NCBI GenBank assembly: GCA_964613905.1
Contig: CAZTIV010000001.1
Coordinates: forward strand, 43,923 to 107,922
Direction: 5' to 3'
Length of the DNA stretch: 64,000 nucleotides
Source: an uncultured Gemmatimonadaceae bacterium
GTDB lineage: Bacteria; Gemmatimonadota; Gemmatimonadetes; Gemmatimonadales; GWC2-71-9
The position numbers were made by a program, and so were the translations under genes. Positions 2,281-64,000 of this stretch are shown in pieces. Every line of letters begins with the position of its first letter. The first letter of the stretch is position 1. The notes below the pieces were generated by a model. It did no database searches. It was not told where the DNA came from and saw only the letters and a program-made list of their open reading frames with translations.

Positions 2281-2322
2281 TCGGCCGTCCCAGGGGATTT
2301 CCCTTCACACAGAGAGGATCGC

Positions 2323-2979: not shown

Positions 2980-3013
2980 GTGCGTCAAGCCGTTACTTCC
3001 GGGAGTGTAACCA

Positions 3014-3044
3014 GGGGCCGGAGGCGCTCAGGCGCCTCGGCCCC
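3014..3044. terminator. GC-rich hairpin between convergent genes (possible bidirectional terminator)
   Basis: GGGGCCGGAGGCGC-tcag-GCGCCTCGGCCCC gives 13 bp with one bulged G. The loop contains the hyuB stop codon (tca 3028-3030). It lies 35 nt after the stop of the + strand OMP gene. There is no clear U-tract. Confidence 0.45.
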
Positions 3045-14385: not shown

Positions 14386-14594
14386 GGATTCGGCATCCTC
14401 CCGACAAGCCACGAGGAAGAATACATCACGCCGCCTGTCGCGGCTCTGAATTGCGCCATGAAAGAAGGGACGGCGGGTGCCTCGCTGTGACTCGTGAGCG
14501 CCAGACCGCGCTGCGACAGGGCACCGAGCTTGTCGTCATCCTGCAACTTACGTTAGTCAGGTCCCGGCGTGGGCGCAATGGCCACCCGACGAGT

Positions 14595-17468: not shown

Positions 17469-17471
17469 CAA

Positions 17472-37672: not shown

Positions 37673-37680
37673 GGAGGCTC

Positions 37681-38410: not shown

Positions 38411-38539
38411 CTGTTCTCACACCTAGGGACCCCTTAATTTCATGAGTCCGCGTAACATGCTGAAACTTCGCCCTGCGACCCGCCGTAGGCTGTGCAATAC
38501 CGGCTGCTCGCATCTCAGAACCTGAATCGGGAACAAACC

Positions 38540-40033
38540 ATGTCAGCAAGACTCTCGCGCCTGATAATTGGTCTCGCCGCAACCTTGGGGTCACCTTTGG
38601 CAGCGCAGGAGCCCGTCCTGCCATCGGTGCCGCAGACCCTGACGCTGGCCGAGGCCACCGCGATCGCCTCCCGCTACAACCCCGGCTTCCGCCAGGTCCA
38701 CAATGACCGCGGGCCGGCCGGTTGGGGAGTGCGCAACGCCTACGCGGCCTTCATCCCCAACGTCACGGCAAGCGGCAGCGTGACCTACCGCGGGTCCGGC
38801 TCGCAGGCGTTTCTGACTCAGCAGTTCACACAGCCATCGTCCACTGTGGGCTCGAGCTACAACCTTGGCCTGACCTGGCAACTGTCCGGGGCCACGCTCA
38901 GCCAGCCTGGCCTCGCCAAGGCGCAGCTGAACGCGGCTGAGGCGGCTATCGATGGCGCTTTGATCAACCTCGGGGCGGCGGTCTCTCAGCAGTATCTGGC
39001 AATCCTGCAGGCCCAGGCACAAGTGGAGCTGGCGCTGCTCCAGCTCCGCCGCAACGAGGAATTCCTGAGGCTCGCGGAGGCCCGCTTCGGGGTCGGACAG
39101 GCCACGCAGCTCGATGTCCGACAGGCAGAGGTGGCCAGGGGCCAGGCAGAAGTTGCCTTGTTGCAGAACCGGCAGCTGGTGACCGTGGAGAAACTGCGTC
39201 TGTTCCAGCAGATGGGCGTGGTGGCTCCGGAAGACCTTTCGCTGGTAACCCTGACGGATACATTCCCGGTGACCGAACCGACCTGGTCACTCGCCAACCT
39301 CCTGGCGGAGGCTGAGGACGCGAACCCCAACCTTACCGCTCTGAGAGCGCAGGAATCGGCGGCTCGGTGGGGGGAACGCGCCGCCCGATCTCAATGGCTG
39401 CCGACCCTCAGCTTCAACGCCTCGTGGTCCGGCTTTACTCAGAGGTTCACTGACGAAAACCAGTTGGTGATGAACGCACTGAACAGTGCGCAGAATCAGC
39501 TGAACGAGTGCAATTACGCGAATGCCAATTGGTTGAACCCGGGGGGTACGGCCCTGCCGTGCAACCTGCTCGACTTCGATCCTGTTCAACTGGAACAGCG
39601 GACGCGGGATAACAATCAGTTGTTCAGCAACTATCGCAGCCAGCCGTTCCAGGCCACGTTTACCGTCTCATTGCCCATATACACACAGTTCGGACGGCCA
39701 CTCCGGATCTCCCATGCGGCGGCACAAGCAGACGATGCCCGTGAGGCCGTGCAGGGACGAAGATTACAGGTTCGCACGGACGTGAGTCAGGCGTTCTACA
39801 GCCTTCAGACGGCGCACCAGACCATTGCGCTGCAGGAAACCAACCGGGTTGCGGCGCGGGAACAGCTTCGCCTCGCCACCGAACGTTACCGGGTAGGATC
39901 CGGAACCTTCTTCGAGTTGCTGGACGCGCAGGTAGCGGCGCAGCGCGCCGAGGCGGACTACATCAACGCCGTCTACGGATACCACCGGTCGGTTGCCGCT
40001 CTGGAGGCGGCGGTCGGGCGGCCACTTCGATAG
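38540..40033 (+). CDS. TolC family outer-membrane efflux protein
   Basis: Signal peptide MSARLSRLIIGLAATLGSPLAA/Q. Two repeats of the OEP coiled-coil/beta pattern. Ends ...YHRSVAALEAAVGRPL. Confidence 0.88.
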   Translation: MSARLSRLIIGLAATLGSPLAAQEPVLPSVPQTLTLAEATAIASRYNPGFRQVHNDRGPAGWGVRNAYAAFIPNVTASGSVTYRGSGSQAFLTQQFTQPSSTVGSSYNLGLTWQLSGATLSQPGLAKAQLNAAEAAIDGALINLGAAVSQQYLAILQAQAQVELALLQLRRNEEFLRLAEARFGVGQATQLDVRQAEVARGQAEVALLQNRQLVTVEKLRLFQQMGVVAPEDLSLVTLTDTFPVTEPTWSLANLLAEAEDANPNLTALRAQESAARWGERAARSQWLPTLSFNASWSGFTQRFTDENQLVMNALNSAQNQLNECNYANANWLNPGGTALPCNLLDFDPVQLEQRTRDNNQLFSNYRSQPFQATFTVSLPIYTQFGRPLRISHAAAQADDAREAVQGRRLQVRTDVSQAFYSLQTAHQTIALQETNRVAAREQLRLATERYRVGSGTFFELLDAQVAAQRAEADYINAVYGYHRSVAALEAAVGRPLR

Positions 40034-40051
40034 AGGAATCGAGGACCCCGC

Positions 40052-41296
40052 ATGAGCAAGCGCAAGAAGCTGATTCTGATCGGCGGAATCGTCGTGGTCG
40101 TGGGCGGACTGATCGTCGTGTCCGCCGTGAAGGGCCGCGACTCGGGTACGACAGTCCGCCTGGACGAAGTCGGACGTCGCAACCTGGTGGCAACGGTGAC
40201 GGCGAGCGGCAAGATCAAGCCGCAGACTTCCGTGGACATAAGCGCCGACATCACGGGCCGGATCATCGAGATACGAGCACGGGAGGGCGAGATGGTCCGG
40301 CGCGGTGACCTGCTCATCAGGATCGACCCTTCGCAATACGAGGCGGCGGTGGCACGGGCGGAGGCGCTGCTGGCCTCGGCGGAAGCCGGGGCCATTCAGG
40401 CCAATGCCAACCGCGATCAGGCGGAGCGGGCGCTTCGCCGGACTCGCGAACTCCGGGAGGCATCTCCCACCCTTGTCTCAGAAGAGCAGCTTGAGCAGGC
40501 TGACACGCAGTTCCGCGTGGCGGAAGCCGTGGCCGTGTCGAGCCAGCGTCAGGTGGACCAGGCACGAGCGGGCCTTCGCGAAGCCCGTGACGCGCTGGCG
40601 AAGACCGTGCTGAGATCTCCAATCGACGGTCAGGTTACCAGGCTCGCGGTGGAGGAGGGCGAAGTTGCGGTACCGGGCACGTTCTCACGGGAAACCGGAC
40701 TGCTCATGACCGTGGCCGACATGTCCGTGATACAGGTGAATGTGCAGGTTGATGAGACCGACGTAGTACGCCTTGGCCTAGGTGACTCTACCGAGATCAC
40801 CATAGACGCCTTTCCGGACCGGACCTTCAGCGGCCGTGTGAGCAAGATTGCGCACAGCGCCGTGCGCCAGATGGCTCAGGCCGGCACGGCCCGCGCAGTG
40901 GACTATGACGTCGAGATTACGCTGGATGATCCCCCGGCCGAGATCCGGCCGGATCTGTCGGCTACGGCCCGGATGGTAACCGCCATGAGAGACAGCGCCG
41001 TATCGCTGCCGATCATCGCGCTCACCGTGCGAGATCACCGTCCCCTGTCCACTGAGATCGCCCCGGTCGACACCGCGCGGGCCCGGCGCGAGACCGAAGG
41101 CGTGTTCGTCGTGCAGCAGGGATACGCATATTTCCGGCCCGTGAAGGTTGGTATCACCGGCGAAGAGCATTTTGAGGTTCTGGAAGGCGTGAGCCCGGGC
41201 GATTCCATCGTGGCGGGACCTTATCAGGTAATCCGCGACCTGCGGGACAGCACGAGGGTGCGTGCCTCCCGTGACGGTCGGGGCGGAGGAAGCTGA
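40052..41296 (+). CDS. Efflux periplasmic adaptor subunit (HlyD/MacA type)
   Basis: N-terminal TM, a long coiled-coil hairpin ([18 protein letters not shown]...[16 protein letters not shown]), and barrel-sandwich motifs ([10 protein letters not shown]). Confidence 0.88.
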
Positions 41297-41298
41297 CC

Positions 41299-42003
41299 AT
41301 GAATACGAGCGGCATTCCGGTTATCCGCGTGAAGGGTCTCACACGGTCGTACGACATGGGGGCAGAAACCGTACACGCCCTGAGGGGCGTGGACGTGGTG
41401 ATAGCCCGGAACGAGTACGTGGCCATCATGGGCCCGTCCGGTTCCGGCAAGTCTACCATGATGAACCTGATAGGATGCCTGGATACGCCCACGTCCGGCG
41501 AGTACTGGCTCAACGGTACGGAAGTATCCCGGATGACCGACGATGAGCTGGCGCGGGTAAGGAATCGCGAGATCGGTTTCGTTTTTCAGACCTTCAACCT
41601 GTTGCCGCGGGCGAGTGCGCTCCACAACGTGGAACTGCCGCTCATCTACTCCGGGCTCAGGGCAGGCACGCGGCGTGCCAGGGCGCAGGAAGCTCTGGAG
41701 CGCGTGGGACTCGCCGACCGCATGCACCACAGGCCCAACGAGTTGTCGGGTGGGCAGCGTCAGCGCGTGGCAATTGCAAGAGCTCTGGTCAACACGCCGA
41801 GCATTCTGCTGGCTGACGAGCCCACCGGCAATCTGGACTCCATGACCAGCGGCGAGATAATGGCCGTGTTCGCCGAGCTCCATCGACAGGGCCAGACGGT
41901 CGTAATGGTGACCCACGAGGCGGACATTGCCGCTCATGCACACCGCGTAGTCACGCTGCACGATGGCCGCGTCCACAGCGACACGTTGCGGGAAGCGGCC
42001 TAG
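41299..42003 (+). CDS. ABC transporter ATP-binding protein (MacB/LolD-type NBD)
   Basis: Walker [20 protein letters not shown], signature [15 protein letters not shown], Walker [13 protein letters not shown]. Confidence 0.92.
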
Positions 42004-42014
42004 GAGTCAGGGTC

Positions 42015-43256
42015 GTGCCCTTCCGCGAAGCGATCCGTCTGGCCCTCCAGACCATCTGGACGCACAAGATGAAGACGGCGTTCAGCATCACCGGCGTCTT
42101 CATCGGCGTGATGTTCCTGCTGGCGGTGGTTTCGATCGTCGAGGGGATGAACCGGTACATGACCGACCGGTTCGCGGGGACACTGCTGGGCGTCAACACT
42201 TTTCACCTGCGGCGTTTCCCGAACTTTCAGGCGGGAGAGGTCACGAGGGATACGTGGCGTGAGTGGGTGCGCCGCCCCCGGATCACCTACGAGGACGCCG
42301 AGGCGGTGGTCTCCTCTCTCACGATACCCCACATGGCGGCATGGGAGTCTTCCAATCGGGCCGTGCTGGAATACCGCGGGCGGACAGCGAGCGACATCAA
42401 CGTTACGGCCGCCACTGAGCGGTACTTCGAGATCAAGAGCCTGGACATCCAGACGGGGAGGGCCTTTTCCGCGCATGAGGTGCGTTCCGGAACGCCGGTG
42501 GTGGTGCTGGGATTCGAAGTGGCCGAGCGGCTTTTCAACGGTGGCGATCCGTTGGGACGTGAGGTGAAGATCTACGGGATACCGTACCGTGTGATAGGTG
42601 TGGTGGAACCCCAGGGGAACCTTCTCGGAATTTCGCTGGACAAGTTCGCGGTCACGACGGCTGCGGCGCCGGCCAAGCGGTTCGTGAACCAGCCCCGGGT
42701 GCTTGATGCACTCATCGTCAAGACGGGGTCCCAGGCCGAACTCCGGGAAGCGATGGAACAGGCGGAAGCCGTGATGCGCACCCGCCGCCAGCTGAGACCT
42801 ACCGAGGACAACAACTTCGTGCTCGAGACATCTGATTCGGTGCTCGAGTTCTGGGCGAAGATCAATCAGGTGTTGCTCCTGGCTCTGCCCGGCCTGGTGA
42901 GCATTTCACTCGTGGTTGGCGGCATCGTGATCATGAACATCATGCTGATGTCGGTGGCGGAACGGACTTACGAGATCGGCATCCGGAAGTCGCTGGGCGC
43001 CAGGCGCGGCGACATCCTGAGACAGTTTCTGGTAGAGTCGGTAACAATTTCCACTATTGGAGCGGCGCTGGGGGTTGCAACGGGAATCGGCATCGCCAAG
43101 CTGGTGGCCGCCACGACACCGCTCCCAGCCGAGATCGCTCCGTGGTCGCTGATCGTCGGCGTGGGGCTCGGGACCGGCGTCGGCGTCATCTTCGGCGTCT
43201 ACCCGGCGAGTCGCGCCGCCCGACTCGATCCCGTGGTCGCAATGCGCAATGAGTAG
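42015..43256 (+). CDS. MacB/FtsX-type ABC permease, paralog A
   Basis: TM1, a ~230-aa periplasmic domain, then a 3-TM FtsX domain. Type-A signatures are IRKSLGARRGDILRQFLVES and GVYPASRAARLDPVVAMRNE. GTG start with AGGAG upstream. Confidence 0.88.
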   Translation: MPFREAIRLALQTIWTHKMKTAFSITGVFIGVMFLLAVVSIVEGMNRYMTDRFAGTLLGVNTFHLRRFPNFQAGEVTRDTWREWVRRPRITYEDAEAVVSSLTIPHMAAWESSNRAVLEYRGRTASDINVTAATERYFEIKSLDIQTGRAFSAHEVRSGTPVVVLGFEVAERLFNGGDPLGREVKIYGIPYRVIGVVEPQGNLLGISLDKFAVTTAAAPAKRFVNQPRVLDALIVKTGSQAELREAMEQAEAVMRTRRQLRPTEDNNFVLETSDSVLEFWAKINQVLLLALPGLVSISLVVGGIVIMNIMLMSVAERTYEIGIRKSLGARRGDILRQFLVESVTISTIGAALGVATGIGIAKLVAATTPLPAEIAPWSLIVGVGLGTGVGVIFGVYPASRAARLDPVVAMRNE

Positions 43257-44493
43257 GTTCTCAGCCGCCTGGGAAGGGTTCGGCATCGCGGCTGGCGCCC
43301 TGCGCGCCAACAAGATGCGGGCGGCGCTGACCATTCTGGGCATCGCCATAGGCGTGATGTCCGTGATGGTCATTGCCGCCCTCATTACCGGTATCAACCG
43401 GAACGTGGCTTCCCTCTTCGAGGAGTCGGGAACACGGACCTTCTTCGTCACCCGGTTCTTCCAGGGCGGAATCGTGATCTCGGACGGATCGGACGAGATG
43501 AGCCCGTGGCGCCGCCGTCCGCATCTCAACGTTCAGGAGGCGGAGGAGGTCCGCGGTCTCGCGAGCGTAGCCTACGTCGACGTGGAGGAGAACTGGAGCG
43601 CACCAGCGGAATTCAGCGGGCAGCGTCTCGAGTCGGTACGTATTCAGGGAAGATCCGAACACTGGCCAAATGTATCCGGTGGAGATGTATTTCCGGGCCG
43701 TTCGTTCGCGCGGGTGGAGGTGCTGACCAATGCAAGGGTTGCGGTGGTCAGCGACCGGCTGGCGGAGCAGCTCTTTGGCCAGCTCGATCCGGTGGGCCAG
43801 CGTTTCCGGCTCGGAGGACAACCGTTTGACGTGATCGGCGTCTATACACCCACACCCAATCTGTTCGGAGAGGGAGAGGGCCCCCGTGCCATCATCCCGC
43901 ACGGCACGCTGGGCAAGTACATCAAACCGAATCCCGGCTGGATGCAGTTTACGGTCAAGGCCGCCGACCACGTTACCCTCGACGACGCAATCGACGACGT
44001 TACGGTGGCTCTCCGGGTCTCGCGGGGCTTGAGACCGGGCGCCGAGTCCAACTTCGACATTGTAACCTCGGATAAGCTTGTCGAGACATGGAACCGGATC
44101 ACTGGCATCTTCTTCCTTGTAATGATTGTCCTTTCTGCCGTCGGACTCATGGTGGGCGGGGTCGGTGTCATCGCAATCATGACGATCTCCGTCACCGAGC
44201 GCACCCGCGAGATTGGGGTGCGCAAGGCGCTCGGCGCGAGGCGCCGGGAGATCCTCTGGCAGTTCCTGGTGGAGGCAGCTACTGTGACGCTGATCGGCGG
44301 AGCCGTCGGGATGCTGCTCGGGGGTCTCGTGGCACTGCTCGTGGCCGCCGCAACGCCGCTTCCCGCCAGCGTGCCGCTCTGGGCCATCGCCGTCGCACTG
44401 CTCGCCTCCGCCCTAACAGGCATCGGATTCGGTCTGTTTCCGGCAGCGCGGGCGGCTCGGCTGGACCCCGTTGAAGCCTTGCGCTACGAATAG
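43249..44493 (+). CDS. MacB/FtsX-type ABC permease, paralog B
   Basis: Same architecture. Type-B signatures are VRKALGARRREILWQFLVEAAT and GLFPAARAARLDPVEALRYE. 8-nt overlap with paralog A. Confidence 0.88.
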   Translation: MSRFSAAWEGFGIAAGALRANKMRAALTILGIAIGVMSVMVIAALITGINRNVASLFEESGTRTFFVTRFFQGGIVISDGSDEMSPWRRRPHLNVQEAEEVRGLASVAYVDVEENWSAPAEFSGQRLESVRIQGRSEHWPNVSGGDVFPGRSFARVEVLTNARVAVVSDRLAEQLFGQLDPVGQRFRLGGQPFDVIGVYTPTPNLFGEGEGPRAIIPHGTLGKYIKPNPGWMQFTVKAADHVTLDDAIDDVTVALRVSRGLRPGAESNFDIVTSDKLVETWNRITGIFFLVMIVLSAVGLMVGGVGVIAIMTISVTERTREIGVRKALGARRREILWQFLVEAATVTLIGGAVGMLLGGLVALLVAAATPLPASVPLWAIAVALLASALTGIGFGLFPAARAARLDPVEALRYE

Positions 44494-44525
44494 AACGGCA
44501 GCACCTGGCAGCGTAGATTCCTGAT

Positions 44526-45770
44526 ATGCCGCTCAGCGAAGCCCTGCGCCTGGCCCTTCAGACGGTAGCAGCCCACAAGCTGCGATCCTTCTTCACGCTC
44601 CTCGGTATCATCGTATCGGTGGCCTTTCTCGTGGCCGTCGTTGCGGTCATACGAGGCATGAATTCGTATGTTGAGGAGAACCTCGCCGGCGCGATCGTGG
44701 GCAAGAACGCCTTCCAGATCCGGCGTACCCCCATTTCCATCGGGCTCATAAGCGACGAAGACTACCGTGAACTGCAGCGCCGGCCCATCATCGCACCCGA
44801 AGACGTGGCTTTTGTGGAGCGGGCCATCCCGGATGCCATGGCCATTGCACTTCAGTCGGGATGGCCCACACCCATGGCCGACGTGATATGGCGCAACCGC
44901 ACGGTGGGCGACGTAGCGGTGTTCGGAATCACGCCGCCGTACCTGACCGTACAGGACTATTACATACACGCCGGCGAACCGCTCACTGAAGTGGACGTGC
45001 GCGAGCGGCGCCCGATTGCTCTCCTGGGCTGGGACGTTGCCACCAAGCTCTTTGACGATCCCGATATGGCCATCGACAGGACCATTCGAGTGCGCGGTCT
45101 TCAGGTAAAGGTCAAGGGCGTGATCTCACCGAAGGGTACCGTGCTGGGACAGTCGTGGGACGGCTTCGTCATGCTGCCGTTCACCGTATTCGAACAGTTG
45201 TACGGACGGAGACAAACCACGGTCATCGGGGTCAAGATGGCAGATCCCAATCAGGTAGCCGGCGCCATGGCCCGGGCGGAAGAGGCGATGCGTATTGCTC
45301 ACAGACTGCGCCCGGGCCAGCCTAACGACTTTACCGTGGATACCGCCGAGGGTCTGATCGCATTCTGGCAGGGACTCACGCGGGTCATCTTCACAGTAGT
45401 GCCGGCCGTGGTGGCCATAGGGATTGTGGTGGGCGGGATCGTGATCATGAACATCATGTTGATGTCTGTCAACGAGCGCACCCGCGAAATCGGCATCCGG
45501 AAGTCGCTCGGGGCCAAGCGGCAGGACATCGAGCGTCAGTTCCTCGCCGAATCGGTGACGCTGTCGATGCTGGGGGGATTCTTCGGTCTCGGAGCCGGAT
45601 GGACCCTTGCCTTCCTGGTCAGGACCCTGTCCCCGTTGCCCGCCATCGTGACTCCGTGGTCGGCGGCCGTGGCAATAACTCTGGGTATTTCGGTGGGAAT
45701 TGTGTTCGGCGTATACCCGGCCCGTCGGGCTGCGAGGCTCGATCCCGTCACGGCCATGCGGGTGGAGTGA
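44526..45770 (+). CDS. MacB/FtsX-type ABC permease, paralog A2
   Basis: The N-terminus MPLSEALRLALQTVAAHKLRS parallels paralog A (MPFREAIRLALQTIWTHKMKT). Other signatures: IRKSLGAKRQDIERQFLAES and GVYPARRAARLDPVTAMRVE. Confidence 0.88.
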   Translation: MPLSEALRLALQTVAAHKLRSFFTLLGIIVSVAFLVAVVAVIRGMNSYVEENLAGAIVGKNAFQIRRTPISIGLISDEDYRELQRRPIIAPEDVAFVERAIPDAMAIALQSGWPTPMADVIWRNRTVGDVAVFGITPPYLTVQDYYIHAGEPLTEVDVRERRPIALLGWDVATKLFDDPDMAIDRTIRVRGLQVKVKGVISPKGTVLGQSWDGFVMLPFTVFEQLYGRRQTTVIGVKMADPNQVAGAMARAEEAMRIAHRLRPGQPNDFTVDTAEGLIAFWQGLTRVIFTVVPAVVAIGIVVGGIVIMNIMLMSVNERTREIGIRKSLGAKRQDIERQFLAESVTLSMLGGFFGLGAGWTLAFLVRTLSPLPAIVTPWSAAVAITLGISVGIVFGVYPARRAARLDPVTAMRVE

Positions 45771-45783
45771 GAGGCGCCACCAG

Positions 45784-47025
45784 ATGAACCTGCGCACCGT
45801 CTTCGAGGGCGTGACGATAGCGCTCGATGCCATCCGCACGAGCAAGCTTCGGTCGGCGCTCACCATACTGGGCGTCGTCATAGGAGTGGCCACGGTGATG
45901 GCGATGGCATCGATTGTGACCGGCATCCGCGCGCAGATCGTAAACACCCTCGAGGTCACCGGACCAACCACCCTTCGTATCGTGAGGTTCTTCTCCCAGA
46001 CGCCGCTCAATCCGGACGCGTTGCCCCGCGAAGTTCGTATTCGCCCGGTGCTGCGACCGGAAGAAGCTGAAGCACTTCAGCGTCTGCCGCAGATTCACTA
46101 CGCCGCAATCTGGACCCAGGTGTTCCAGCGCATCGAATACTCCGGCTCGCGCACGCAGATGGTGCCGATGTTCGGCACGGACGACCGATTCATGGAGATA
46201 CTGGGCGGTGCCCTGTTGTCGGGACGGGTATTCACGGCCGCCGAGCTGCGCGGGGGCGCCGGTGTGGTAATCATCGAACGAGAGGCGGCTGGGCGCGTTT
46301 TCGGGAGGATTGAACCGATCGGCAAGACCGTGCGCGTGGGCGGGCGGCCCTTAACCGTAGTGGGTCTCTACCAGCGCCCGGAGAACATCTTCGAGCTGCC
46401 GGGCCAGGAGATCTCGGCCTTTCTGCCCTACGAATTCGCCCGCCGCGCATATCGCGTGGACGAGACCAACGCCCTCGTCATTGCGGCCAAGCCCAGGGAC
46501 GACGTATCTGTGAGCGAAGCGGTAGACGCCATAACAGTTCAGCTCCGGCGCATGAGGGGATTGCGACCGGCGGATCCGAACACCTTCGACATAGTCACCG
46601 CAGATCAGATACTCGGCGTGTTCGACCGGATCACCGGGGCGTTCTTCCTCGTGATGATCATCCTGTCCAGCGTCGCTCTGATGGTGGGCGGGATAGGTGT
46701 GATGGCAATAATGATGGTCTCGGTAACCGACCGGACCCGCGAGATTGGGGTGCGCAAGGCGCTCGGCGCCACGCGGCGTGAGATACTCTGGCAGTTTCTC
46801 GTCGAGGCGGCTACCCTGACCTTCGTAGGCGGCGCCATTGGTGTTCTGTGCGGTATCATGGCCGGCGAGGGACTCAAGGCTCTGCTCAAGCTGGACGCGG
46901 CAATCCCCATGTGGAGCGCCATGCTGGCTACGGCCGTTTCTGTCGGAATCGGACTGATCTTCGGATTGTTACCGGCCAACAGGGCGGCCAAACTCGACCC
47001 GGTGGAGGCACTTCGATATGAATAG
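45784..47025 (+). CDS. MacB/FtsX-type ABC permease, paralog B2
   Basis: ALDAIRTSKLRSALTILGVVIGVATVM parallels paralog B (AAGALRANKMRAALTILGIAIGVMSVM). Other signatures: VRKALGATRREILWQFLVEAAT and GLLPANRAAKLDPVEALRYE. ATG 45784 follows a GAGG motif. Confidence 0.88.
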   Translation: MNLRTVFEGVTIALDAIRTSKLRSALTILGVVIGVATVMAMASIVTGIRAQIVNTLEVTGPTTLRIVRFFSQTPLNPDALPREVRIRPVLRPEEAEALQRLPQIHYAAIWTQVFQRIEYSGSRTQMVPMFGTDDRFMEILGGALLSGRVFTAAELRGGAGVVIIEREAAGRVFGRIEPIGKTVRVGGRPLTVVGLYQRPENIFELPGQEISAFLPYEFARRAYRVDETNALVIAAKPRDDVSVSEAVDAITVQLRRMRGLRPADPNTFDIVTADQILGVFDRITGAFFLVMIILSSVALMVGGIGVMAIMMVSVTDRTREIGVRKALGATRREILWQFLVEAATLTFVGGAIGVLCGIMAGEGLKALLKLDAAIPMWSAMLATAVSVGIGLIFGLLPANRAAKLDPVEALRYE

Positions 47026-47737
47026 GGTTGACCTGCTTGCGATAGGTGCCCATCCCGACGACGTCGAGCTGACCTGTGGTGGCACTCTGATCAAGATGGC
47101 GTGGCAGGGATACACGACGGCGGTGATCGACCTGACCGGAGGAGAGAGCGGCACTCACGGCAGTGCGGAAGTGCGCGCCAGGGAGGCTGCTGCTGCGGCA
47201 AAGGTACTGAAGGTGGCAGCGCGGGTAAACGCGGGCTTGACGGACGCAGGGCTGCACAATACCGAGGAATCGCGCCGTGCGCTCGTGAGCCTTATTCGGC
47301 ACTTCGCTCCGCGTGTCGTGATTCTCCCCTACCCTATAGGGCGTCACCCTGACCACAGGATAGCTTCGGAGCTGGGCAGAGACGCATCCTACCTGGCCGG
47401 GCTCCGGCACTACCCCGCTGACGGCGAGGCGCACCGACCAGAAAAGGTGCTCTACACACTGGCGTACCGGGAAGACCCGGTGAAGCCCACCTTTGTGGTG
47501 GACATATCGGAAGAGTTCGAAGAGAAGATGGAGGCCATCCGGTGCTATGCCTCGCAGTTCGACGGCAAGATGGCTGCGGGCGAGATCTTCCCCGCCGGCG
47601 GCGACATTTATGAGAACGTCAGGATGCATTGTGCCCGGTACGGGAGCCTGATCCGCACGGCGTTCGGTGAGCCGTTTCTCACGCATGAGACGATCAGGGT
47701 GGACGATGTGGTGGGGATGGGGGTGCGGTCGATGTAG
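47018..47737 (+). CDS. bshB1: PIG-L family deacetylase, BshB1-like (bacillithiol biosynthesis)
   Basis: LAIGAHPDDVELTCGGT, DLTGGE and RHPDH motifs. Overall it resembles B. subtilis BshB1 as I recall it. 8-nt overlap with permease B2. Confidence 0.65.
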   Translation: MNRVDLLAIGAHPDDVELTCGGTLIKMAWQGYTTAVIDLTGGESGTHGSAEVRAREAAAAAKVLKVAARVNAGLTDAGLHNTEESRRALVSLIRHFAPRVVILPYPIGRHPDHRIASELGRDASYLAGLRHYPADGEAHRPEKVLYTLAYREDPVKPTFVVDISEEFEEKMEAIRCYASQFDGKMAAGEIFPAGGDIYENVRMHCARYGSLIRTAFGEPFLTHETIRVDDVVGMGVRSM

Positions 47738-58345: not shown

Positions 58346-58921
58346 TCACTGCGGTGCCGATGACCACACCCGTACCTGTACCCGGGCGGGGCGCAGCAAC
58401 TGGCCGGCAAAACGGTACCCCGTCTGGAACACCGCCGCCACGGTCTGATCCTGATCCTCGCTCTCCGCCAGAACCGTTGCGACTGCCTCGTGCATCGACG
58501 GATCGAACGCCTCGCCCACGCGGCCCAACCGCTCGAGCCCCATGGTCTCCAACTCACGGCCGATCTTCCGCTCGACCAGCGCCACTCCGGCTACGACATC
58601 GGCTGCTGAGGTCTGCTCCGGATCAAGGCCGGCAAATCGATTCAGATCATCGATCGCATCCAGCAGGACGGTCACGACCTCGGCGCGGCCGCCGGTCCTG
58701 TACTCCCCCCGCTCACGGGCTACGCGCTTCCGGTAGTTGTCGAACTCGGCCGCAAGCCTCAGGTGCTGGTCCCTGACCTTCTCCACCTCTTCGGTCAGGC
58801 GCCGAACCTCTTCTTCCGGCAAAGTGGCCGGCGTAGCCGCACCACCCGGAACCGAAGCCTCAACCGGCTCCTGATCCGCCGCTTCCCCGAGTGCCTGATT
58901 TTCCAGTTTCCGTTTGCCCAT
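58346..58921 (-). CDS. grpE: Nucleotide exchange factor GrpE
   Basis: RLAAEFDNYRKR motif and a C-terminal beta domain (FDPSMHEAV...GYRFAGQLLRPARV). Confidence 0.9.
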   Translation of the reverse strand: MGKRKLENQALGEAADQEPVEASVPGGAATPATLPEEEVRRLTEEVEKVRDQHLRLAAEFDNYRKRVARERGEYRTGGRAEVVTVLLDAIDDLNRFAGLDPEQTSAADVVAGVALVERKIGRELETMGLERLGRVGEAFDPSMHEAVATVLAESEDQDQTVAAVFQTGYRFAGQLLRPARVQVRVWSSAPQ

Positions 58922-59010
58922 CTGTCTCCCGCTCTCAGTACGTCACAAAGCCGCCACCGGATTCTCGCAGGGTATGCCACTACGGGCAACCCTCATGCCC
59001 CAGACTGCTG

Positions 59011-60252
59011 TCACAATGACATGAATCTGCGAACGAGGTCCAGAGCGGCCTGCGCGGCGCGGTGTCGGATTTCCGTCCGATCTCCCGGCAGCCTCAGCGT
59101 CTTGTGTCGCTCGTCGTGGGCGGCATTCACGGCCAGGTGGAGTGTCCCGACGGGCTTGTCTGCAGTTCCGCCCTCCGGCCCGGCTATGCCGGTAACGGCA
59201 AGGCCCACGTCAGAGGACAGTCGCTCCCTTACTCCACGAGCGAGCGCCAAAGCCGCGGGTTCGCTCACCGCCCCGTGGCTCCGGATAATCGTTTCGGGAA
59301 CACCCAGCTGCCGGATCTTGACCTCGTTGGCATAGGCGATCACACCACCGGCAAACACAGATGAGGCCCCAGGTATTGACGTGATCCGGGCACCCACGAG
59401 ACCTCCGGTACAGGATTCGGCTACAGCGAGCGTCTTGCCGGCGGCGGCAAGCCCCCGGACGATAACCTCCGCCAGGCTGGTAGCACCTTCTTCATAGCAA
59501 TCCGGGCCCACTGCGTGGCGGATGACTGCGACCGCATGGTCGAGCACGACCATGCCCGCGGCATCGCCGTCCCAGACGGTAAGTCTCAGGTCGACACCAT
59601 CGAACGACGGGAGATAGGCGAGCTCAGCCGGGGCAAGACTCTCCTCGAGCGGTCCCAGCATGTCCGCCAGGGCCGACTCGGCGATCCCGGTGGTTCTGAC
59701 GGTTCGGGTTATCAGTGCGGGACGGTCTCCCCAGCGCTCCCGCAGGCGGGGTATAACCTGCTCGTACAACACCCCCGACAGTTCGTGAGGAGGCCCAGGC
59801 AGGAGGATCGTGACTCCCCTGTCTCCTTCGAGCCAGAGGCCAGGAGCGGTTCCCTGCGGGTTGGGGAGCACGGTGGCTCCCACCGGCACTTCGGCCTGCG
59901 TGCGATTCGCCTCGGGCATGGCGCCTGGCCGACCCAGAGATTTCCAGCGCTCTTCGAGCCGCCGGAGCAGGACTTGATCGACCTCGACCCGGACACCATA
60001 AACCCGAGCTGCTGCCCCTTTCGTCACGTCGTCACGCGTTGGTCCGAGCCCTCCCGAAACAACCGCGAATCCGGTTCTGGAGAGGGATTCCCGAATCGCC
60101 CCGGACACCGCATCGGCGGCATCCGCCACCGTGACGTGCCTGAGCACACGCACGCCTACCGGTGCCAGCGCGCGAGCTATTTCAGCGGTGTTGGTATCCA
60201 GGATGTGTCCGAGAAGAAGCTCGGTGCCTACGGTAATGACCTCAGCGTCCAT
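59011..60252 (-). CDS. cinA: CinA family protein (MoCF-biosynthesis-like domain plus nicotinamide-nucleotide amidase domain)
   Basis: MDAEVITVGTELLLGHILDTN is a typical CinA N-terminus. The C-terminal PncC-type domain carries ESCTGG. Confidence 0.88.
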   Translation of the reverse strand: MDAEVITVGTELLLGHILDTNTAEIARALAPVGVRVLRHVTVADAADAVSGAIRESLSRTGFAVVSGGLGPTRDDVTKGAAARVYGVRVEVDQVLLRRLEERWKSLGRPGAMPEANRTQAEVPVGATVLPNPQGTAPGLWLEGDRGVTILLPGPPHELSGVLYEQVIPRLRERWGDRPALITRTVRTTGIAESALADMLGPLEESLAPAELAYLPSFDGVDLRLTVWDGDAAGMVVLDHAVAVIRHAVGPDCYEEGATSLAEVIVRGLAAAGKTLAVAESCTGGLVGARITSIPGASSVFAGGVIAYANEVKIRQLGVPETIIRSHGAVSEPAALALARGVRERLSSDVGLAVTGIAGPEGGTADKPVGTLHLAVNAAHDERHKTLRLPGDRTEIRHRAAQAALDLVRRFMSL

Positions 60253-60904
60253 CGCCCGAAGCCGGTGCCGCAAAGAGACGCCGGTACCGGTATATGTATA
60301 CGCCCATTGAGTACATGGTGAGGAGCACGGCGACGGCGAGCGTCAATGCTACCAGCCAACCATGGAAACGCTGCCAGAGCGCGCCGAGCCATCCTGCCTC
60401 CCATCCAAACTCCGCCGCCATGTCCCGCCAGGCAAACCATGCAATGGTGGCGCCGATGAAGATGTCCTGCACAATGGTCTTGAGCTTGCCCGCCCCGGCG
60501 GCGGCAATCACCACTCCACGGCGCTTCGCGATCTGCCGGAAAACCGTCATCAGCAATTCCCGGCCGATGAGCAGGAGACACACCCAGAGCGGAATGCTTC
60601 CCCACCAGGGGATCTCGTACTGTTGCATCCGAAAGTTGGTGATCCAGTAGATGGGCACCAGCGTGGCGAAGAGCAGCAGCTTGTCGGCCAGCGGATCGAG
60701 CAATTTACCCAAGTCGGTAATCTCGTTGCGCTGGCGCGCCAGGCGACCGTCATAGATATCGCTGATGGCGGCAACCAGGAAGACCACGAATGCGATGAGT
60801 TTGGGCAGGTACCCCCGGATGAACGGCAGGAGGGCGATGACCGGGGTCAGCGCGATTCTCGCGATCGTAAGGACGTTGGGCAGCGTCCAGACGGTCGCAG
60901 TCAT
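60242..60904 (-). CDS. pgsA: CDP-diacylglycerol--glycerol-3-phosphate 3-phosphatidyltransferase
   Basis: CDP-alcohol phosphatidyltransferase motif DIYDGRLAR...G..LDPLADK and the N-terminus LPNVLTIARI. Confidence 0.88.
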   Translation of the reverse strand: MTATVWTLPNVLTIARIALTPVIALLPFIRGYLPKLIAFVVFLVAAISDIYDGRLARQRNEITDLGKLLDPLADKLLLFATLVPIYWITNFRMQQYEIPWWGSIPLWVCLLLIGRELLMTVFRQIAKRRGVVIAAAGAGKLKTIVQDIFIGATIAWFAWRDMAAEFGWEAGWLGALWQRFHGWLVALTLAVAVLLTMYSMGVYIYRYRRLFAAPASGDGR

Positions 60905-60905
60905 T

Positions 60906-61580
60906 TCAGCTCAGGGTCTTCAGCACCATCTTGGCCACCGCCTTGAGGGTGTCGAAGACGCCTTCTCCGCTTACCGCAACCGACTCGAAGTACGGCGCGC
61001 GCTCCACCCACGTATCATCCACCCTCCAGATGAGGAAATCTCCCGGGTGGTGCGGATCCGGCGTTTCCTTCTGCCTGGCGGCATCTTCCACAGGCCAACC
61101 GGGGTTGAGCTGGGCCTGGAGGTCCTTGATGGGCGACGCGTTGGGCAGGTCCCGTTTGTTGTACTGAACCACGAACGGGATCCTGGTCAGATCGTAGCCA
61201 TACTGCGCCATATTGTCGTACAGGTTCTGCATCGACTCGATATTCGCTTCCATCCGCTCGATCTGGCTGTCGGCCACGAATACGACGCCGTCCACACCCT
61301 TGAGGATCAGCTTCCGGGAGGCGTTGTAGTACACCTGTCCCGGCACGGTGTACAGATGAAAGCGTGTCTTGAAGCCCTTCACGGTACCCAGGTCCACAGG
61401 GAGGAAATCGAAGAACAGGGTGCGTTCCGTTTCCGTGGCCAGCGATACCATCTTGCCCCGGGTGTCGGGCGACACCTTGCCGTAGATATGCTCGAGGTTG
61501 GTGGTCTTTCCGCCCAGACCCGGGCCGTAGTAGACCAACTTGCAGTTGATCTCCCGGGAGGCGTAATTAATCATGGACAT
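60906..61580 (-). CDS. mglA: MglA-type Ras-like small GTPase (with a ~30-aa insertion)
   Basis: [75 protein letters not shown] and [11 protein letters not shown] are near-identical to Myxococcus MglA as I recall it. Length is 224 aa versus ~195 aa. Confidence 0.9.
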
Positions 61581-61586
61581 CTGGAT

Positions 61587-62072
61587 TTACTCGCCGAATA
61601 GCTTGTCGATCTCGTCATCGGCGCCCTCGAGCACCGCAGGCCGCTGCGCGTCCGTACCCATACGACCGAACATCTCGTCGAACAGCTTTCCCAGATCCGA
61701 GACCGTCTGTTTTACCCGCAGACGGACGAGCCCCACGGTCGTCCGCTGATCGAACAGCACCACCAGTATCACGCGCCGCGCCACGTCGGCGAGGTACATC
61801 GACTCCTTCTCGCCCTGATGGAACAGCGAAGCGAACTCCGGTTCGCCGATCATCTTGGCAAGCTGGTCGTTGGCGCTGAAGTCCGCCGCGGTAAGCGACG
61901 CAAACGCGGTGGAATCGAACTGCAACTGCTCACCGGAACTGGCCAGCAATTGCCCGGCCCGGTCCACCAGAAGCGCGCACCGGGCGTTCGACTCCTTCAG
62001 TAGCGTGGAGAGATGCTCCGTGATCTGCTGGTAATCGCTCTCTCCGAGCGACCAGGTACCTGCACCGGTCAT
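61587..62072 (-). CDS. mglB: MglB, Roadblock/LC7 domain GTPase-activating protein
   Basis: 161 aa. ...NARCALLVDRAGQLLASSGE... is the Roadblock/LC7 pattern. It ends 6 nt upstream of mglA, the canonical mglBA order. Confidence 0.8.
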   Translation of the reverse strand: MTGAGTWSLGESDYQQITEHLSTLLKESNARCALLVDRAGQLLASSGEQLQFDSTAFASLTAADFSANDQLAKMIGEPEFASLFHQGEKESMYLADVARRVILVVLFDQRTTVGLVRLRVKQTVSDLGKLFDEMFGRMGTDAQRPAVLEGADDEIDKLFGE

Positions 62073-62085
62073 CGGCCCTCTCGCA

Positions 62086-62355
62086 TCACCCGAGTTTCGC
62101 TTCCATGCGCCGGACAATGGCCTCCGCCCGGCGCCGTAACATAGGCTGCTGCTCCCACGCGACGTAATCCCTGAGCAATCGTACCGTCTCCACGCTGGGG
62201 CGGGCGCTCAGGTACCCAAGGGCGGACAACCGCTTGAGGGGCCTGCTGCTGAACAGAGCCCGGCGGTACCGGTTGATGGAATGCTGAGCCAGCATCCCCC
62301 CCACCACCACACCGGCAACGAGCGCCACCAGCAGCGCCCGGGTCCGCGCACGCAT
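62086..62355 (-). CDS. Hypothetical 89-aa N-terminally membrane-anchored protein
   Basis: MRARTRALLVALVAGVVVGGMLA is a TM anchor followed by a helical, Arg-rich tail. The ATG overlaps the recR stop by 1 nt, and the ORF ends 13 nt before mglB. Confidence 0.5.
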   Translation of the reverse strand: MRARTRALLVALVAGVVVGGMLAQHSINRYRRALFSSRPLKRLSALGYLSARPSVETVRLLRDYVAWEQQPMLRRRAEAIVRRMEAKLG

Positions 62356-62951
62356 CAGTCGTTCATCTCCCTGCGGGCTGCCAGGGCGCGCCCGATTGTG
62401 ACTCCATCCGCGTACTCCAGATCACCACCCACCGGCAGCCCCAGCGCTATCCGTGTGAGCCTGACACCGGAGCCACCGAGCGCCTCGCGAAGATAAGTGG
62501 CCGTAACTTCGCCTTCCAGCGACGGATTCGTGGCTATGATGATCTCGCGCACAACGCTCCCGTTGGCCAGCCGTTGCCGCAATGCCTCGATTCTGAGGTC
62601 GTCGGGGCCTATACCGTCGAGTGGCGACAGCCGCCCGCCCAACACATGGTAGAGACCGCGATACTCGCCTGAGCGCTCGATCGCTGCGATGTCGGACGCC
62701 TCCTCAACCACGCAAACCACCCCGCCATCGCGCCGGGGGTCCGTACAGAGCGGGCAGGTATCGGCATCGCTCAGGTTCCCGCAAACCGTACACGGCCGGA
62801 CGCTGTCCGCCACTGATTCCAACGCACGGGCCAACTGACGCGCTACCTGAGCCGGCTGCTTCAGCAGGAAGTACACGAGCCTGGTCGCGGTCTTCCTGCC
62901 AATGCCGGGAAGCTTTGCGAGCTCGGTGACAAGCTCGTCGATGGCCGGCAC
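62355..62951 (-). CDS. recR: Recombination protein RecR
   Basis: HhH motif LPGIGRKTATRL, C4 zinc finger (CTVCGNLSDADTCPLC), Toprim domain. GTG start at 62951, 4 nt after the ybaB stop. Confidence 0.9.
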   Translation of the reverse strand: MPAIDELVTELAKLPGIGRKTATRLVYFLLKQPAQVARQLARALESVADSVRPCTVCGNLSDADTCPLCTDPRRDGGVVCVVEEASDIAAIERSGEYRGLYHVLGGRLSPLDGIGPDDLRIEALRQRLANGSVVREIIIATNPSLEGEVTATYLREALGGSGVRLTRIALGLPVGGDLEYADGVTIGRALAARREMND

Positions 62952-62955
62952 CGGG

Positions 62956-63273
62956 TTACAACGGGAGCTGGAACGGAAGCGGCAGCCCGCCGGTGGCCTT
63001 GCGAAGCTCCTCGCGGTACAACTCCTCGGCCTTGCGCTGCGCATCCGCCACCGCAGCCAGCACGAGATCCTCGAGCATCTCCACGTCCGCCTGCCCGGCG
63101 GCCTCCGGGTCGATCCGCACTGCGCGTACCATGCCCCGGCCGTCGACGGTCACCTGGACCATACCGCCCCCAGCCGAGCCCTGTACGCTGCGCTGAGCGA
63201 GCTCGGTCTGCATCTGGGTCAGACGCCCCTGAACCTGCTGGCCAAGTTGAAGCAACTGCGAGAAATCCGGCAT
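62956..63273 (-). CDS. ybaB: YbaB/EbfC family nucleoid-associated protein
   Basis: 105 aa from ATG 63273: MPDFSQLLQLGQQVQGRLTQMQTELAQRSVQGSAGGGMVQVTVDG...; conserved dnaX-ybaB-recR order. Confidence 0.88.
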   Translation of the reverse strand: MPDFSQLLQLGQQVQGRLTQMQTELAQRSVQGSAGGGMVQVTVDGRGMVRAVRIDPEAAGQADVEMLEDLVLAAVADAQRKAEELYREELRKATGGLPLPFQLPL

Positions 63274-63310
63274 GTGACTCAAGCTAAGGTCGGCAGGGAG
63301 AGCCCGCAAG

Positions 63311-64000
63311 CTATTCGATGAGTTCAAGATCCATGCTCTCCGCGGCGGCGTCCAGGGCCTTGTCTCGGGCTCGGTAGGCCTTGAGCCGGGTCTCCCGGTC
63401 ACGGTTCTGGTCCAGCCGCTCCGGAGCGGGTTTGGCACCACCTTCGGGGCGTTCTTCCAGCACCACGCGGAGTGACCTCCCCAGCACCTCGGTGATGGCC
63501 GTTTCCAGTACCTGGCGCCCCCGATCGAGACCCTCCCAATAGACATCTGCCCCGGTGACCCTGATCGTCAGCACATCGTCGGACAGTCCGACTGGTTCCG
63601 CGTGCGCCATGGCCTCCTTCAGCATGCGCCTGCGGCGGCCTACCGCCTCCACCACACCGGACCACTGGTTCCGTACCTCCGCCACCTCCGGCGGACCGGG
63701 GGGGGCGGTCAGCTCCGGCACGGTGGAAGCCGCGGGCGCGGCTGCCCGGGGGACGTTGGGCCGGGATCCTCCTCCCAGAGCATCCATCAGTTCCGAGAGA
63801 GCAACCGTTCGGTCCAGAAGCGCGCACTGAACCAGGAACGTCTCGACGTGCAGACGGGCGTTCGGGCTGCGGCGTACGGCCCCCTCAACCTCCTGGTACA
63901 GCTTCAGCATCCGCAACAGATCGCCCGGCTTGAGGGATGCCGCCCCTCGGGTGACGGCTTGGCGCATGGCCTCCGTAAGGTCGTCCGGCCTGCCGCCCAG
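63311..64000 (-). CDS. dnaX: DNA polymerase III subunit gamma/tau, C-terminal part (5' end outside window)
   Basis: The frame is open to the window edge. The domain III-like segment is LLRMLKLYQEVEGAVRRSPNARLHVETFLVQCALL. Position upstream of ybaB-recR supports the call. Confidence 0.7.
   Translation of the reverse strand: MGGRPDDLTEAMRQAVTRGAASLKPGDLLRMLKLYQEVEGAVRRSPNARLHVETFLVQCALLDRTVALSELMDALGGGSRPNVPRAAAPAASTVPELTAPPGPPEVAEVRNQWSGVVEAVGRRRRMLKEAMAHAEPVGLSDDVLTIRVTGADVYWEGLDRGRQVLETAITEVLGRSLRVVLEERPEGGAKPAPERLDQNRDRETRLKAYRARDKALDAAAESMDLELIE

Follow-up and report, generated by a model that had tools for sequence, protein, structure and literature searches.

A conserved Gemmatimonadales gene block that places an MglA/MglB polarity module between recR and pgsA-cinA

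MglA and MglB form the best understood Ras-like polarity switch of bacteria, and knowledge of their biology comes almost entirely from Myxococcus, Bdellovibrio and Thermus. Here we describe an mglB-mglA pair lying among housekeeping genes in a stretch of 64,000 nucleotides (nt) from an uncultured Gemmatimonadaceae bacterium (assembly GCA_964613905.1, contig CAZTIV010000001.1, positions 43,923 to 107,922), which is referred to below as the window. Ten minus-strand genes follow one another without interruption across 57.2-64.0 kb, from the 3′ part of dnaX to dnaJ. To define spacings and start codons, the minus-strand bases of this region were read against the table of open reading frames (ORFs); the mechanical ORF list overextends ybaB, recR, mglB and dnaJ upstream, and the starts used are those fitting the profile or homologue alignments. 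The gene order and every spacing given in a preliminary description of this DNA were reproduced exactly in this way. The coordinates of the genes and associated elements are summarized in Table 1, together with the gaps found at the same junctions in related genomes.

Table 1. Genes and sequence elements of the dnaX-dnaJ region, with window coordinates and the gap to the next gene in 80 related loci (aa, amino acids; negative gaps are overlaps)
Feature	Position	Strand	Start, spacing and remarks	Gap to next gene in relatives
dnaX 3′ part (DNA polymerase III tau/gamma C-terminal region)	63311..64000	-	frame open to window end; gene runs past the window	
Predicted sigma70-like element in dnaX-ybaB spacer	63281..63309	-	-35 TTGCGG 63309-63304, 17 nt, -10 TAGCTT 63286-63281	
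ybaB (nucleoid-associated YbaB/EbfC, 105 aa)	62956..63273	-	ATG 63273; 37 nt after dnaX stop	to recR: median 5 nt
recR (recombination mediator, 198 aa)	62355..62951	-	GTG 62951; 4 nt past ybaB stop	to ORF89: median -1 nt; to mglB in loci without ORF89: median 13 nt
ORF89	62086..62355	-	ATG and recR TGA have one base in common (TGATG, 62355)	to mglB: median 12 nt
mglB (Roadblock/LC7 partner of MglA, 161 aa)	61587..62072	-	ATG 62072; 13 nt after ORF89 stop	to mglA: median 15 nt, range 9-27
mglA (assigned as group-1 MglA Ras-like GTPase, 224 aa)	60906..61580	-	ATG 61580; 6 nt after mglB stop	to pgsA: median 11 nt; 63/79 loci <=30 nt; maximum 177
Lineage-specific MglA insertion, ~35 aa, residues ~160-194	60999..61103	-	between helix alpha4 and strand beta6	
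pgsA-like CDP-alcohol phosphatidyltransferase, 220 aa	60242..60904	-	ATG 60904; 1 nt after mglA stop	to cinA: median -4 nt
cinA (competence/damage-inducible protein A, nicotinamide mononucleotide deamidase family, 413 aa)	59011..60252	-	ATG 60252; 11-nt overlap with pgsA	to grpE: median 201 nt, range 33-4661
Palindrome TGTCATTGTGACA	59009..59021	-	over cinA stop, just upstream of the sigma54-type element	
Predicted sigma54-type -24/-12 element GGGCATGAGGGTTGCC	58985..59000	-	just past cinA stop, before grpE; from spacer alignment	
grpE	58346..58921	-	89 nt after cinA; GrpE PF01025 E = 9.5e-34	
dnaJ	57265..~58335	-	10 nt after grpE; DnaJ TIGR02349 E = 2e-102	

The gene names used in the preliminary description agree with both Pfam and NCBIfam for each named gene. 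YbaB matches PF02575 (YbaB_DNA_bd, E = 6e-29) and TIGR00103 (E = 2.4e-20); RecR is aligned with TIGR00615 from profile position 5 (E = 4.9e-72) and contains the RecR_HhH, ZnF, Toprim_4 and RecR_C domains, while CinA matches NF001813 (E = 1.8e-117) and comprises the MoCF_biosynth, CinA_KH and CinA domains. The DnaX_C and NCBIfam DnaX models give weak matches because the window stops inside the gene; in a relative (locus L013), the syntenic dnaX is full-length, encoding 567 aa with the DNA_pol3_delta2, lid, gamma3 and DnaX_C domains. The gene between mglA and cinA encodes a member of the CDP-alcohol phosphatidyltransferases (PF01066, CDP-OH_P_transf, E = 7e-34). Against TIGR00560 its product reaches E = 1.7e-30 and 106.9 bits, slightly below the cutoff of 109.1, and the next model, ClsA, scores 64.7 versus 240; PgsA is most likely the appropriate assignment, with a head-group specificity that is predicted. 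The grpE and dnaJ genes constitute an adjoining chaperone unit, which lies outside the block yet is conserved downstream of it.

The two central proteins of the block are closely related to characterized polarity proteins. In a PDB search, the GTPase matches Myxococcus xanthus MglA at E = 8.6e-85 and Thermus thermophilus MglA at E = 1.4e-74; after the MglA entries (E = 1e-85 to 1e-74), the next matches are Arl8 and Arl10, at E = 6e-5. Identity to the M. xanthus protein is ~80% over residues 1-159 and 69% over the full length when a lineage-specific insertion is deleted. The P-loop GPGLGGKTT (residues 19-27) and the NKRD motif (residues 141-144) are invariant with respect to the M. xanthus and Thermus proteins, as are the alignment columns of YTVPGQ (T78, Q82) and ERTLFF (R53). 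In the first of these a threonine replaces the canonical aspartate of G3 and Q82 is the catalytic glutamine; R53 in the second corresponds to the intrinsic arginine finger. The protein of Gemmatimonas aurantiaca encoded by GAU_1115 (225 aa, in the order MglB>MglA>) is listed under group 1 in Table S2 of Wuichet & Sogaard-Andersen 2015. In the case of the Roadblock protein, a match to Robl_LC7 (PF03259, E = 2.5e-12) is accompanied by an alignment with M. xanthus MglB (6hjm/6h5b/6izw, E = 1.3e-35) that covers residues 17-176 of the 176-aa ORF, reaching the last residue and taking in the acidic C-terminal helix ...DDEIDKLFGE. The match to Thermus MglB is at E = 1.5e-16, and the NCBIfam MglB equivalog model, which was built on Thermus, gives the window protein 82.9 bits, below its 200-bit cutoff. 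From these alignments the GTPase is assigned to group-1 MglA and the Roadblock protein to its cognate MglB, with predicted GTPase and GTPase-activating protein (GAP) activities; the GTPase falls inside the MglA family, as the earlier naming of the pair had supposed.

The MglA of this lineage differs from its characterized homologues by an insertion of about 35 residues, at which the alignments with the M. xanthus and Thermus proteins stop (position 159/160) and after which they restart (position 195). The insertion is found in all 224/225-aa Gemmatimonadales MglAs and is missing from all 195/196-aa MglAs compared, and its sequence is conserved, following the pattern NPGWP...DP.H.G...W..RAPYF. 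The homologues were gathered in several steps: the first search returned Gemmatimonadales only, a Thermus query returned nearly all Deinococcota, and a three-sequence profile reached MglAs of the delta type. In an AlphaFold2 model built from a 90-sequence alignment, the block-mean predicted local distance difference test score (pLDDT) is ~89-91 over residues 151-200, with a beta-hairpin at 182-193 beside strand beta6; the N-terminal half of the model is poor (pLDDT <50 for residues 1-27 and 45-96), and the model was used for the insertion only. The insertion is predicted to form a beta-hairpin that lengthens the sheet at its beta6 edge, away from the switch regions, and may provide a new interaction surface. 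A second group-1 paralogue is present in Gemmatimonas (GAU_1409, 229 aa), flanked by PATAN-domain genes and without mglB (Wuichet & Sogaard-Andersen 2015, Table S2); since this paralogue exists, the operon-embedded mglA is not the sole MglA gene in the phylum.

Immediately upstream of mglB lies ORF89, which has no Pfam or NCBIfam match. Homologues occur at the same position in 50 of the 80 related Gemmatimonadota loci examined, where they follow a common pattern (a transmembrane helix, then R..LFS..P..R..AL......E...LRDY..WE..P.LRRRA...RR.E), and the GC content at third codon positions is 0.82; ORF89 is a real gene. The family counts 126 cluster representatives in 1.84 billion proteins. A single-sequence AlphaFold2 model (pLDDT 81) contains four helices, and the best Foldseek matches in the PDB are generic alphaRep/HEAT repeats that are not significant (E >= 0.28, TM 0.6); a HEAT-like fold class, with an N-terminal transmembrane helix followed by two HEAT-like helical repeats, is suggested by the model. 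Translationally coupled to recR, as its shared stop/start codons predict, and placed directly before mglB, ORF89 is a candidate membrane partner of MglB/MglA. In 25 of the 80 loci, most of which seemingly belong to one subclade, ORF89 was undetected and the rest of the block is unaltered. This subclade (L003-L019 and others) carries an alpha/beta-hydrolase gene (Hydrolase_4) between cinA and grpE; in the L005 clade, the start of the hydrolase gene (10578-11336 in L005) overlaps the cinA stop, making the block one gene longer.

The arrangement is conserved far beyond what chance would produce. The best 80 loci, one genome per species, were taken as relatives; all belong to Gemmatimonadota, mostly labelled Gemmatimonadales or Gemmatimonadaceae, and their MglAs are 80-90% identical to that of the window. 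When gene order was traced by tblastn with the window proteins, dnaX-ybaB-recR-(ORF89)-mglB-mglA-pgsA-cinA-...-grpE-dnaJ was recovered in 80/80 loci, wherever the locus is long enough, with zero exceptions; the order, against which uniqueness to this genome would have told, is thus shared throughout the sample. It is invariant although identity among the loci is only ~50% for CinA and ~60% for RecR. The dnaX..cinA block is held together and the neighbourhood is not, because the cinA-grpE junction is plastic and whole genes have been inserted there. Start codons of the relatives were assigned heuristically, and a few outlier gaps are artefacts. Four features are peculiar to Gemmatimonadales: the collapsed recR-mglB spacer (-4..25 nt, or filled by ORF89 with overlapping stop and start codons), ORF89 itself, the downstream pgsA-cinA pair, and the MglA insertion.

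Within this conserved order, conserved promoter-like elements are confined to the two ends of the block. At the 5′ end, the TAGCTT box of the predicted sigma70-like element ends 7 nt before the ybaB ATG, and the element fills nearly the whole dnaX-ybaB gap. Alignment of the corresponding spacers reveals CTTGC straight after the dnaX stop codon and TA(A/G/C)(C/T)TT 17-19 nt further on. Formulated as TTGC-N18-20-TAnnTT, the motif is present upstream of ybaB in 50 of 68 relatives; not one site occurs in the ybaB..cinA parts of these loci, which total 258,778 nt, and none upstream of mglB, mglA, pgsA or cinA in the relatives. The 7-nt distance between the putative -10 box and the ATG implies that the ybaB mRNA would be leaderless or nearly so, and about 20 relatives with spacers of 36-37 nt share this geometry, while those with spacers of 60-80 nt keep the bipartite motif with a leader of ~40 nt. 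The preliminary description had held that the gaps leave no room for internal promoters: inside ybaB..cinA this agrees with the lack of any conserved promoter-like motif, whereas the dnaX-ybaB gap does accommodate a conserved promoter-like site.

At the 3′ end, the cinA-grpE spacers have a GGCAC-N5-TTGC sigma54-type element in common. Matches of at least 9/11 to TGGCAC-N5-TTGCA occur within 200 nt of grpE in 27 of 60 loci, compared with 0-4 for the other genes, and the density of such elements inside the block is 0.047 per kb; where 1-4.6 kb has been inserted after cinA, the element keeps its place beside grpE. A separate grpE-dnaJ unit probably begins at this element, which would also set the 3′ boundary of the block. 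Control of GrpE/DnaJ chaperone genes by sigma54, as predicted from the conserved element, would be unusual. The window also contains a gene for an NtrC-type sigma54 activator (16107-17471). For both motifs, the promoter role is suggested by conservation. Because conserved elements were found at both ends, they serve as positive controls for the motif scans, and the ybaB..cinA unit can be delimited; the likely transcription unit runs from the putative promoter through ybaB-recR-ORF89-mglB-mglA-pgsA-cinA. Read-through from further upstream is possible because the signal recognition particle (SRP) RNA gene ffs precedes dnaX in relatives. It is located just upstream of dnaX at 4450-4547 (+) in L013 and at 4708-4807 (-) in L005, the match in L005 being on the opposite strand; the window stops short of that region.

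The co-transcription proposed in the preliminary description is strongly implied by tight spacing, stop/start overlaps, conservation in all 80 loci and the lack of an internal motif. An alternative is that the genes do not form one operon, the packing reflecting genome compaction and accident while mglBA and/or pgsA-cinA are expressed mainly from promoters buried in upstream coding sequence. In E. coli, recR indeed has promoters inside dnaX. Moreover, the internal scans comprised three motif classes in a phylum whose housekeeping promoter consensus is not established, and two of the few relatives with more than 100 nt before pgsA (L017 and L036) have a sigma70-like site in that gap. A scan of 56.5-64 kb with the E. 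coli consensus detected no promoter and three terminator-like sites, all on the wrong strand; this consensus is too strict for the phylum, having missed TTGCGG-17-TAGCTT itself, and over the 80 loci it returned 9 sites in 259 kb, none before mglB. Intrinsic-terminator-like sites are absent from the block in the window and in the 80 loci. Against the alternative stand the recR/ORF89 and pgsA/cinA overlaps (TGATG, ATGA, 11 nt) and the 9-27 nt mglB/mglA gap, conserved over 80 species, the zero conserved promoter-like motifs in 259 kb obtained with the same scans that detect elements at both block ends, and an order without variation beside a plastic cinA-grpE junction. We therefore regard separate expression of these genes as quite improbable.

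The upstream half of the arrangement extends well beyond Gemmatimonadales. Metagenomes were scanned with an MglA motif that excludes the VYY type of the window, and 120 loci among the matches listed were analyzed, a sample that is neither random nor taxonomically labelled. In 70 of these loci mglB adjoins mglA, and recR lies directly upstream on the same strand in 28 of the 48 pairs (58%) with enough upstream sequence; where recR-linked loci are long enough, 19/21 include ybaB and 12/14 include dnaX. Two further loci, including L134, have recR followed by mglA without mglB, which is the Bdellovibrio pattern. The recR-mglB spacer in this sample is 24-246 nt with a median of 143, apart from outliers of 515 and 2094 nt, and that of L086 contains a near-perfect consensus promoter (TTGACC-16-TATAAT). 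In L157, a 2-kb insertion separates recR from mglB and may represent an intermediate towards the masABK-split state of M. xanthus. The complete series dnaX-ybaB-recR-mglB-mglA is seen in the delta-type loci L086-L088 and in Anaeromyxobacter sp. (L210). In other cases the linkage is lacking: one 'Deltaproteobacteria' metagenome-assembled genome has no recR at mglBA, the pair is free-standing in Thermus and another Deinococcota-like lineage, and in Corallococcus (Myxococcaceae) mglBA is preceded by a divergent kinase operon and followed by TPR genes. The downstream half shows no such spread, as neither pgsA nor cinA follows mglA in any of 54 non-Gemmatimonadales loci with >=1.5 kb downstream. 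The cinA of L190, the sole such match, was rejected as a linkage, being 3.7 kb off and on the opposite strand.

In a rough neighbour-joining tree of concatenated MglB and MglA (355 columns), Gemmatimonadales form one clade and Deinococcota another, while recR-linked loci are spread through the remaining clade, its deepest branches included, and the Myxococcaceae type branches from within recR-linked relatives. The shared recR-mglBA order might also stem from horizontal transfer of the entire block, a source judged unlikely: dnaX and recR belong to the essential or core genes, identities of ~50-58% for RecR are ordinary between phyla, and recR-linked loci are scattered over the tree. The YbaB family was formerly named DUF149. 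A dnaX-DUF149-recR-mglA link was noted for Bdellovibrio and deltaproteobacteria by Milner 2014, and 37 bp lie between the end of the M. xanthus recR operon and masK, the oppositely oriented 5.5-kb masABK operon alone standing between the recR operon and mglBA (Fremgen 2013, PMC3546991). Wuichet & Sogaard-Andersen 2015 surveyed signalling neighbours only and described group-1 mglA neighbourhoods as 'varying widely'. The recR-mglBA linkage is old and widespread, noted in passing and never analysed. The preliminary description, which knew of no account of this coupling, was accordingly mistaken for the recR half, given the two earlier reports and the 28 metagenomic pairs; of the Gemmatimonadales form, no description was found in the literature searched.

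Such persistence raises the possibility of functional coupling to the chromosome cycle, in which selection would maintain the linkage because pole identity must be reset together with replication, segregation or division, and co-transcription would time or dose MglAB with the cell cycle, or MglAB would act on nucleoid or segregation factors. The linkage is kept in Gemmatimonadota, Myxococcota (Anaeromyxobacter), Bdellovibrio-type lineages and the majority of evaluable metagenomic pairs, it outlasts the loss of mglB (L134, Bdellovibrio), and it becomes tighter, not looser, in Gemmatimonadales. In M. xanthus, moreover, ParAB is positioned by bactofilins, the same proteins with which the MglA paralogue SofG works. 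However, dnaX-ybaB-recR is itself a conserved cluster whose genes are only loosely related in function, and membership in their company implies little; mglBA is free-standing in Thermus/Deinococcota and other lineages, 20 of the 48 evaluable pairs have no recR, and M. xanthus tolerates the 5.5-kb insertion. Most non-Gemmatimonadales loci also keep a spacer of 60-250 nt able to hold an independent promoter, and a replication or nucleoid phenotype of mgl mutants was not found in the literature searched. On this evidence, we consider coupling to the chromosome cycle unlikely.

The effectors of MglAB in model organisms belong to motility machines, and the preliminary description had pointed out that genes for pili, gliding, Frz-like or RomR-like proteins are not visible in the 64 kb. 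A Pfam scan of most long ORFs, with the 413/414-aa ORFs at 42015-45770 and those at 47018-47737 and 37483-37980 outside the scan, likewise detected none. The absence is uninformative: the phylum has pilus genes, and in Thermus and Myxococcus-type loci the effectors likewise do not adjoin mglBA. Type IV pilus genes are reported in genomes of Gemmatimonadota from every environment other than marine, and in G. groenlandica (PMC10581226, PMC7844134). Members of the phylum also bear polar spherical appendages of unknown function and divide by asymmetric fission (PMC11271474). Budding was considered as a link to polarity and rejected, given that recent time-lapse work points to binary fission and to 'buds' that are inert appendages (PMC11271474).

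These cell-biological observations bear on a second alternative, namely that in Gemmatimonadales the module has been repurposed for the envelope, MglAB, ORF89 and PgsA directing anionic-phospholipid synthesis, the choice of an asymmetric division plane or the polar spherical appendages instead of motility. The appendages and the asymmetric fission would suit this proposal, as would the joint appearance of the pgsA-cinA fusion (80/80 loci versus 0/54 elsewhere), the structured MglA insertion and the lineage-restricted ORF89. Yet the core switch is unchanged, with the switch and catalytic residues of MglA intact and the C-terminal helix of MglB kept; ORF89 is gone from an entire subclade in which the rest of the block is undisturbed, the pgsA-cinA pair is of a generic housekeeping kind, and type IV pilus genes, the usual target, occur in the phylum. 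We judge repurposing of this kind to be very unlikely.

Taken together, the evidence leads us to lean, with limited confidence, towards the view that a canonical MglA/MglB polarity switch is expressed within a constitutive, growth-linked housekeeping operon, ybaB..cinA. Its history would comprise two stages. In the first, an old linkage of dnaX-ybaB-recR and mglB-mglA, common to Myxococcota, Bdellovibrio-type and other lineages, would have given mglBA basal expression by read-through from its position at the dnaX-ybaB-recR tail, with a spacer of ~60-250 nt usually leaving space for a dedicated promoter. In the second, confined to Gemmatimonadales, the spacer would have shrunk to -4..25 nt or been filled by ORF89, with loss of the dedicated promoter space, and the widespread pgsA-cinA pair would have become joined directly behind mglA. 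A single conserved promoter in the dnaX-ybaB gap would then drive all seven genes, and overlapping or near-abutting stop and start codons would couple their translation. MglB and MglA would thereby be made constitutively and in fixed proportion to growth-linked functions, one promoter plus coupling setting their level and stoichiometry. MglA-GTP and MglB would act as a pole-identity switch, as in Myxococcus and Thermus, most likely on type IV pili whose genes lie in another part of the genome, and the neighbouring genes would be co-expressed and not biochemical partners.

Several points weigh against this view. Co-transcription is deduced from spacing, coupling and the absence of internal motifs, and promoters of other types within the coding sequence of the block are possible; a few relatives also have 100-177 nt between mglA and pgsA. 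The TTGC/TAnnTT motif occurs once in the 64-kb window, against 1.5 occurrences expected in shuffles, and as the organism's general promoter type it is unsupported by this single site; either the element is locus-specific or the search pattern is too narrow. The breadth of the recR linkage is attached to named organisms through Anaeromyxobacter sp. and the literature cases. Its persistence across phyla exceeds what a functionally neutral neighbourhood would lead one to expect and favours some selective tie, and the MglA insertion and ORF89 hint at a modified role of the Gemmatimonadales module. Any functional tie of the module to replication, recombination or lipid synthesis is put forward as a hypothesis. 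Its most far-reaching form would hold that the linkage, ancestral to several phyla and turned in Gemmatimonadales into an obligate operon with ORF89, a modified MglA and PgsA, exists because MglA/MglB belongs to the cell-cycle machinery, marking or maturing new poles as chromosome replication and local membrane-lipid synthesis proceed and underlying the asymmetric division planes and polar appendages of Gemmatimonadota, instead of or besides pilus polarity; we think it rather doubtful that this is so.

About half of the sampled mglBA loci lie directly behind dnaX-ybaB-recR, M. xanthus has the same arrangement in split form, and one order, Gemmatimonadales, has the module in what appears to be a seven-gene housekeeping operon with lipid-synthesis genes. 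The question raised is why genes for replication and recombination keep a polarity switch on or beside their transcript. Should dosage or constitutive expression be all that is involved, the locus would be an instructive case of operon hitch-hiking; if the link is functional, pole identity would be tied to the chromosome cycle and membrane growth. In either case, ORF89, the MglA insertion and the putative sigma54-type grpE-dnaJ promoter are candidate new parts from a soil phylum that is abundant but poorly known. Both the Gemmatimonadales fusion and the wide spread of the recR link are mildly surprising and readily testable, and nothing is overturned by them.

Elsewhere in the window, several further genes were noted. 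Big_2/Big_1 Ig-like domains and an RCC1-like propeller of seven blades occur together in a 757-aa protein (7-2280, plus strand); in bacteria, RCC1 repeats are uncommon. An efflux cluster at 38492-47737 (plus strand), of which four ORFs were checked by Pfam, encodes an OEP outer-membrane factor, an HlyD-type adaptor, an ABC ATPase and a MacB/FtsX permease; ORFs of similar size (413-441 aa) in the same interval suggest several tandem permease paralogues. Two large histidine kinases (HKs) are encoded on the minus strand at 22803-24824 and 32951-37078, comprising a hybrid PAS-HK-REC protein and a 1375-aa kinase without a recognised sensor domain. A sigma70-family factor (13528-14412) and the NtrC-like regulator lie near the kinases, and no link of these genes to MglAB was found.

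The block can be compared with five known systems. One is M. xanthus mglBA: MglA and MglB are orthologous, mglB immediately precedes mglA, and the P-loop/R53/T78/Q82/NKRD signature is shared. In M. xanthus, however, the pair is a two-gene unit split from the recR operon by masABK, followed by TPR-protein genes instead of pgsA-cinA, without ORF89 and with an MglA that has no 35-aa insertion. The synteny of Bdellovibrio and other 'deltaproteobacteria' has the same upstream half, with dnaX, ybaB, recR and then mglB-mglA on one strand; these loci differ in keeping the recR-mglB spacer, sometimes with a consensus promoter, and in having neither ORF89, the MglA insertion nor pgsA-cinA, and Bdellovibrio has in addition lost mglB. 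In Thermus thermophilus, a homologous GTPase/GAP pair is likewise encoded with mglB directly before mglA, but in Thermus/Deinococcota the pair is free-standing, with divergent genes upstream, cytochrome oxidase or unrelated genes downstream, and no recR, pgsA or cinA.

The widespread bacterial (ffs-)dnaX-ybaB-recR operon has the same three genes, order and short ybaB-recR spacer, with the SRP RNA gene upstream in L013 and L005, and to it the Gemmatimonadales unit adds ORF89, mglB, mglA, pgsA and cinA. In E. coli and B. subtilis, the dnaX-ybaB-recR order has a promoter between or within dnaX and ybaB, and other genes follow recR. The pgsA-cinA pair is conserved among Gram-positives (PMC3328962), where cinA also comes immediately after pgsA in pgsA-cinA(-recA); in the window, by contrast, the pair is joined to the 3′ end of mglA, and what follows is grpE-dnaJ behind the predicted sigma54-type element and not recA. 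The Gemmatimonadales block is a tighter and longer version of a known but unexplained synteny.

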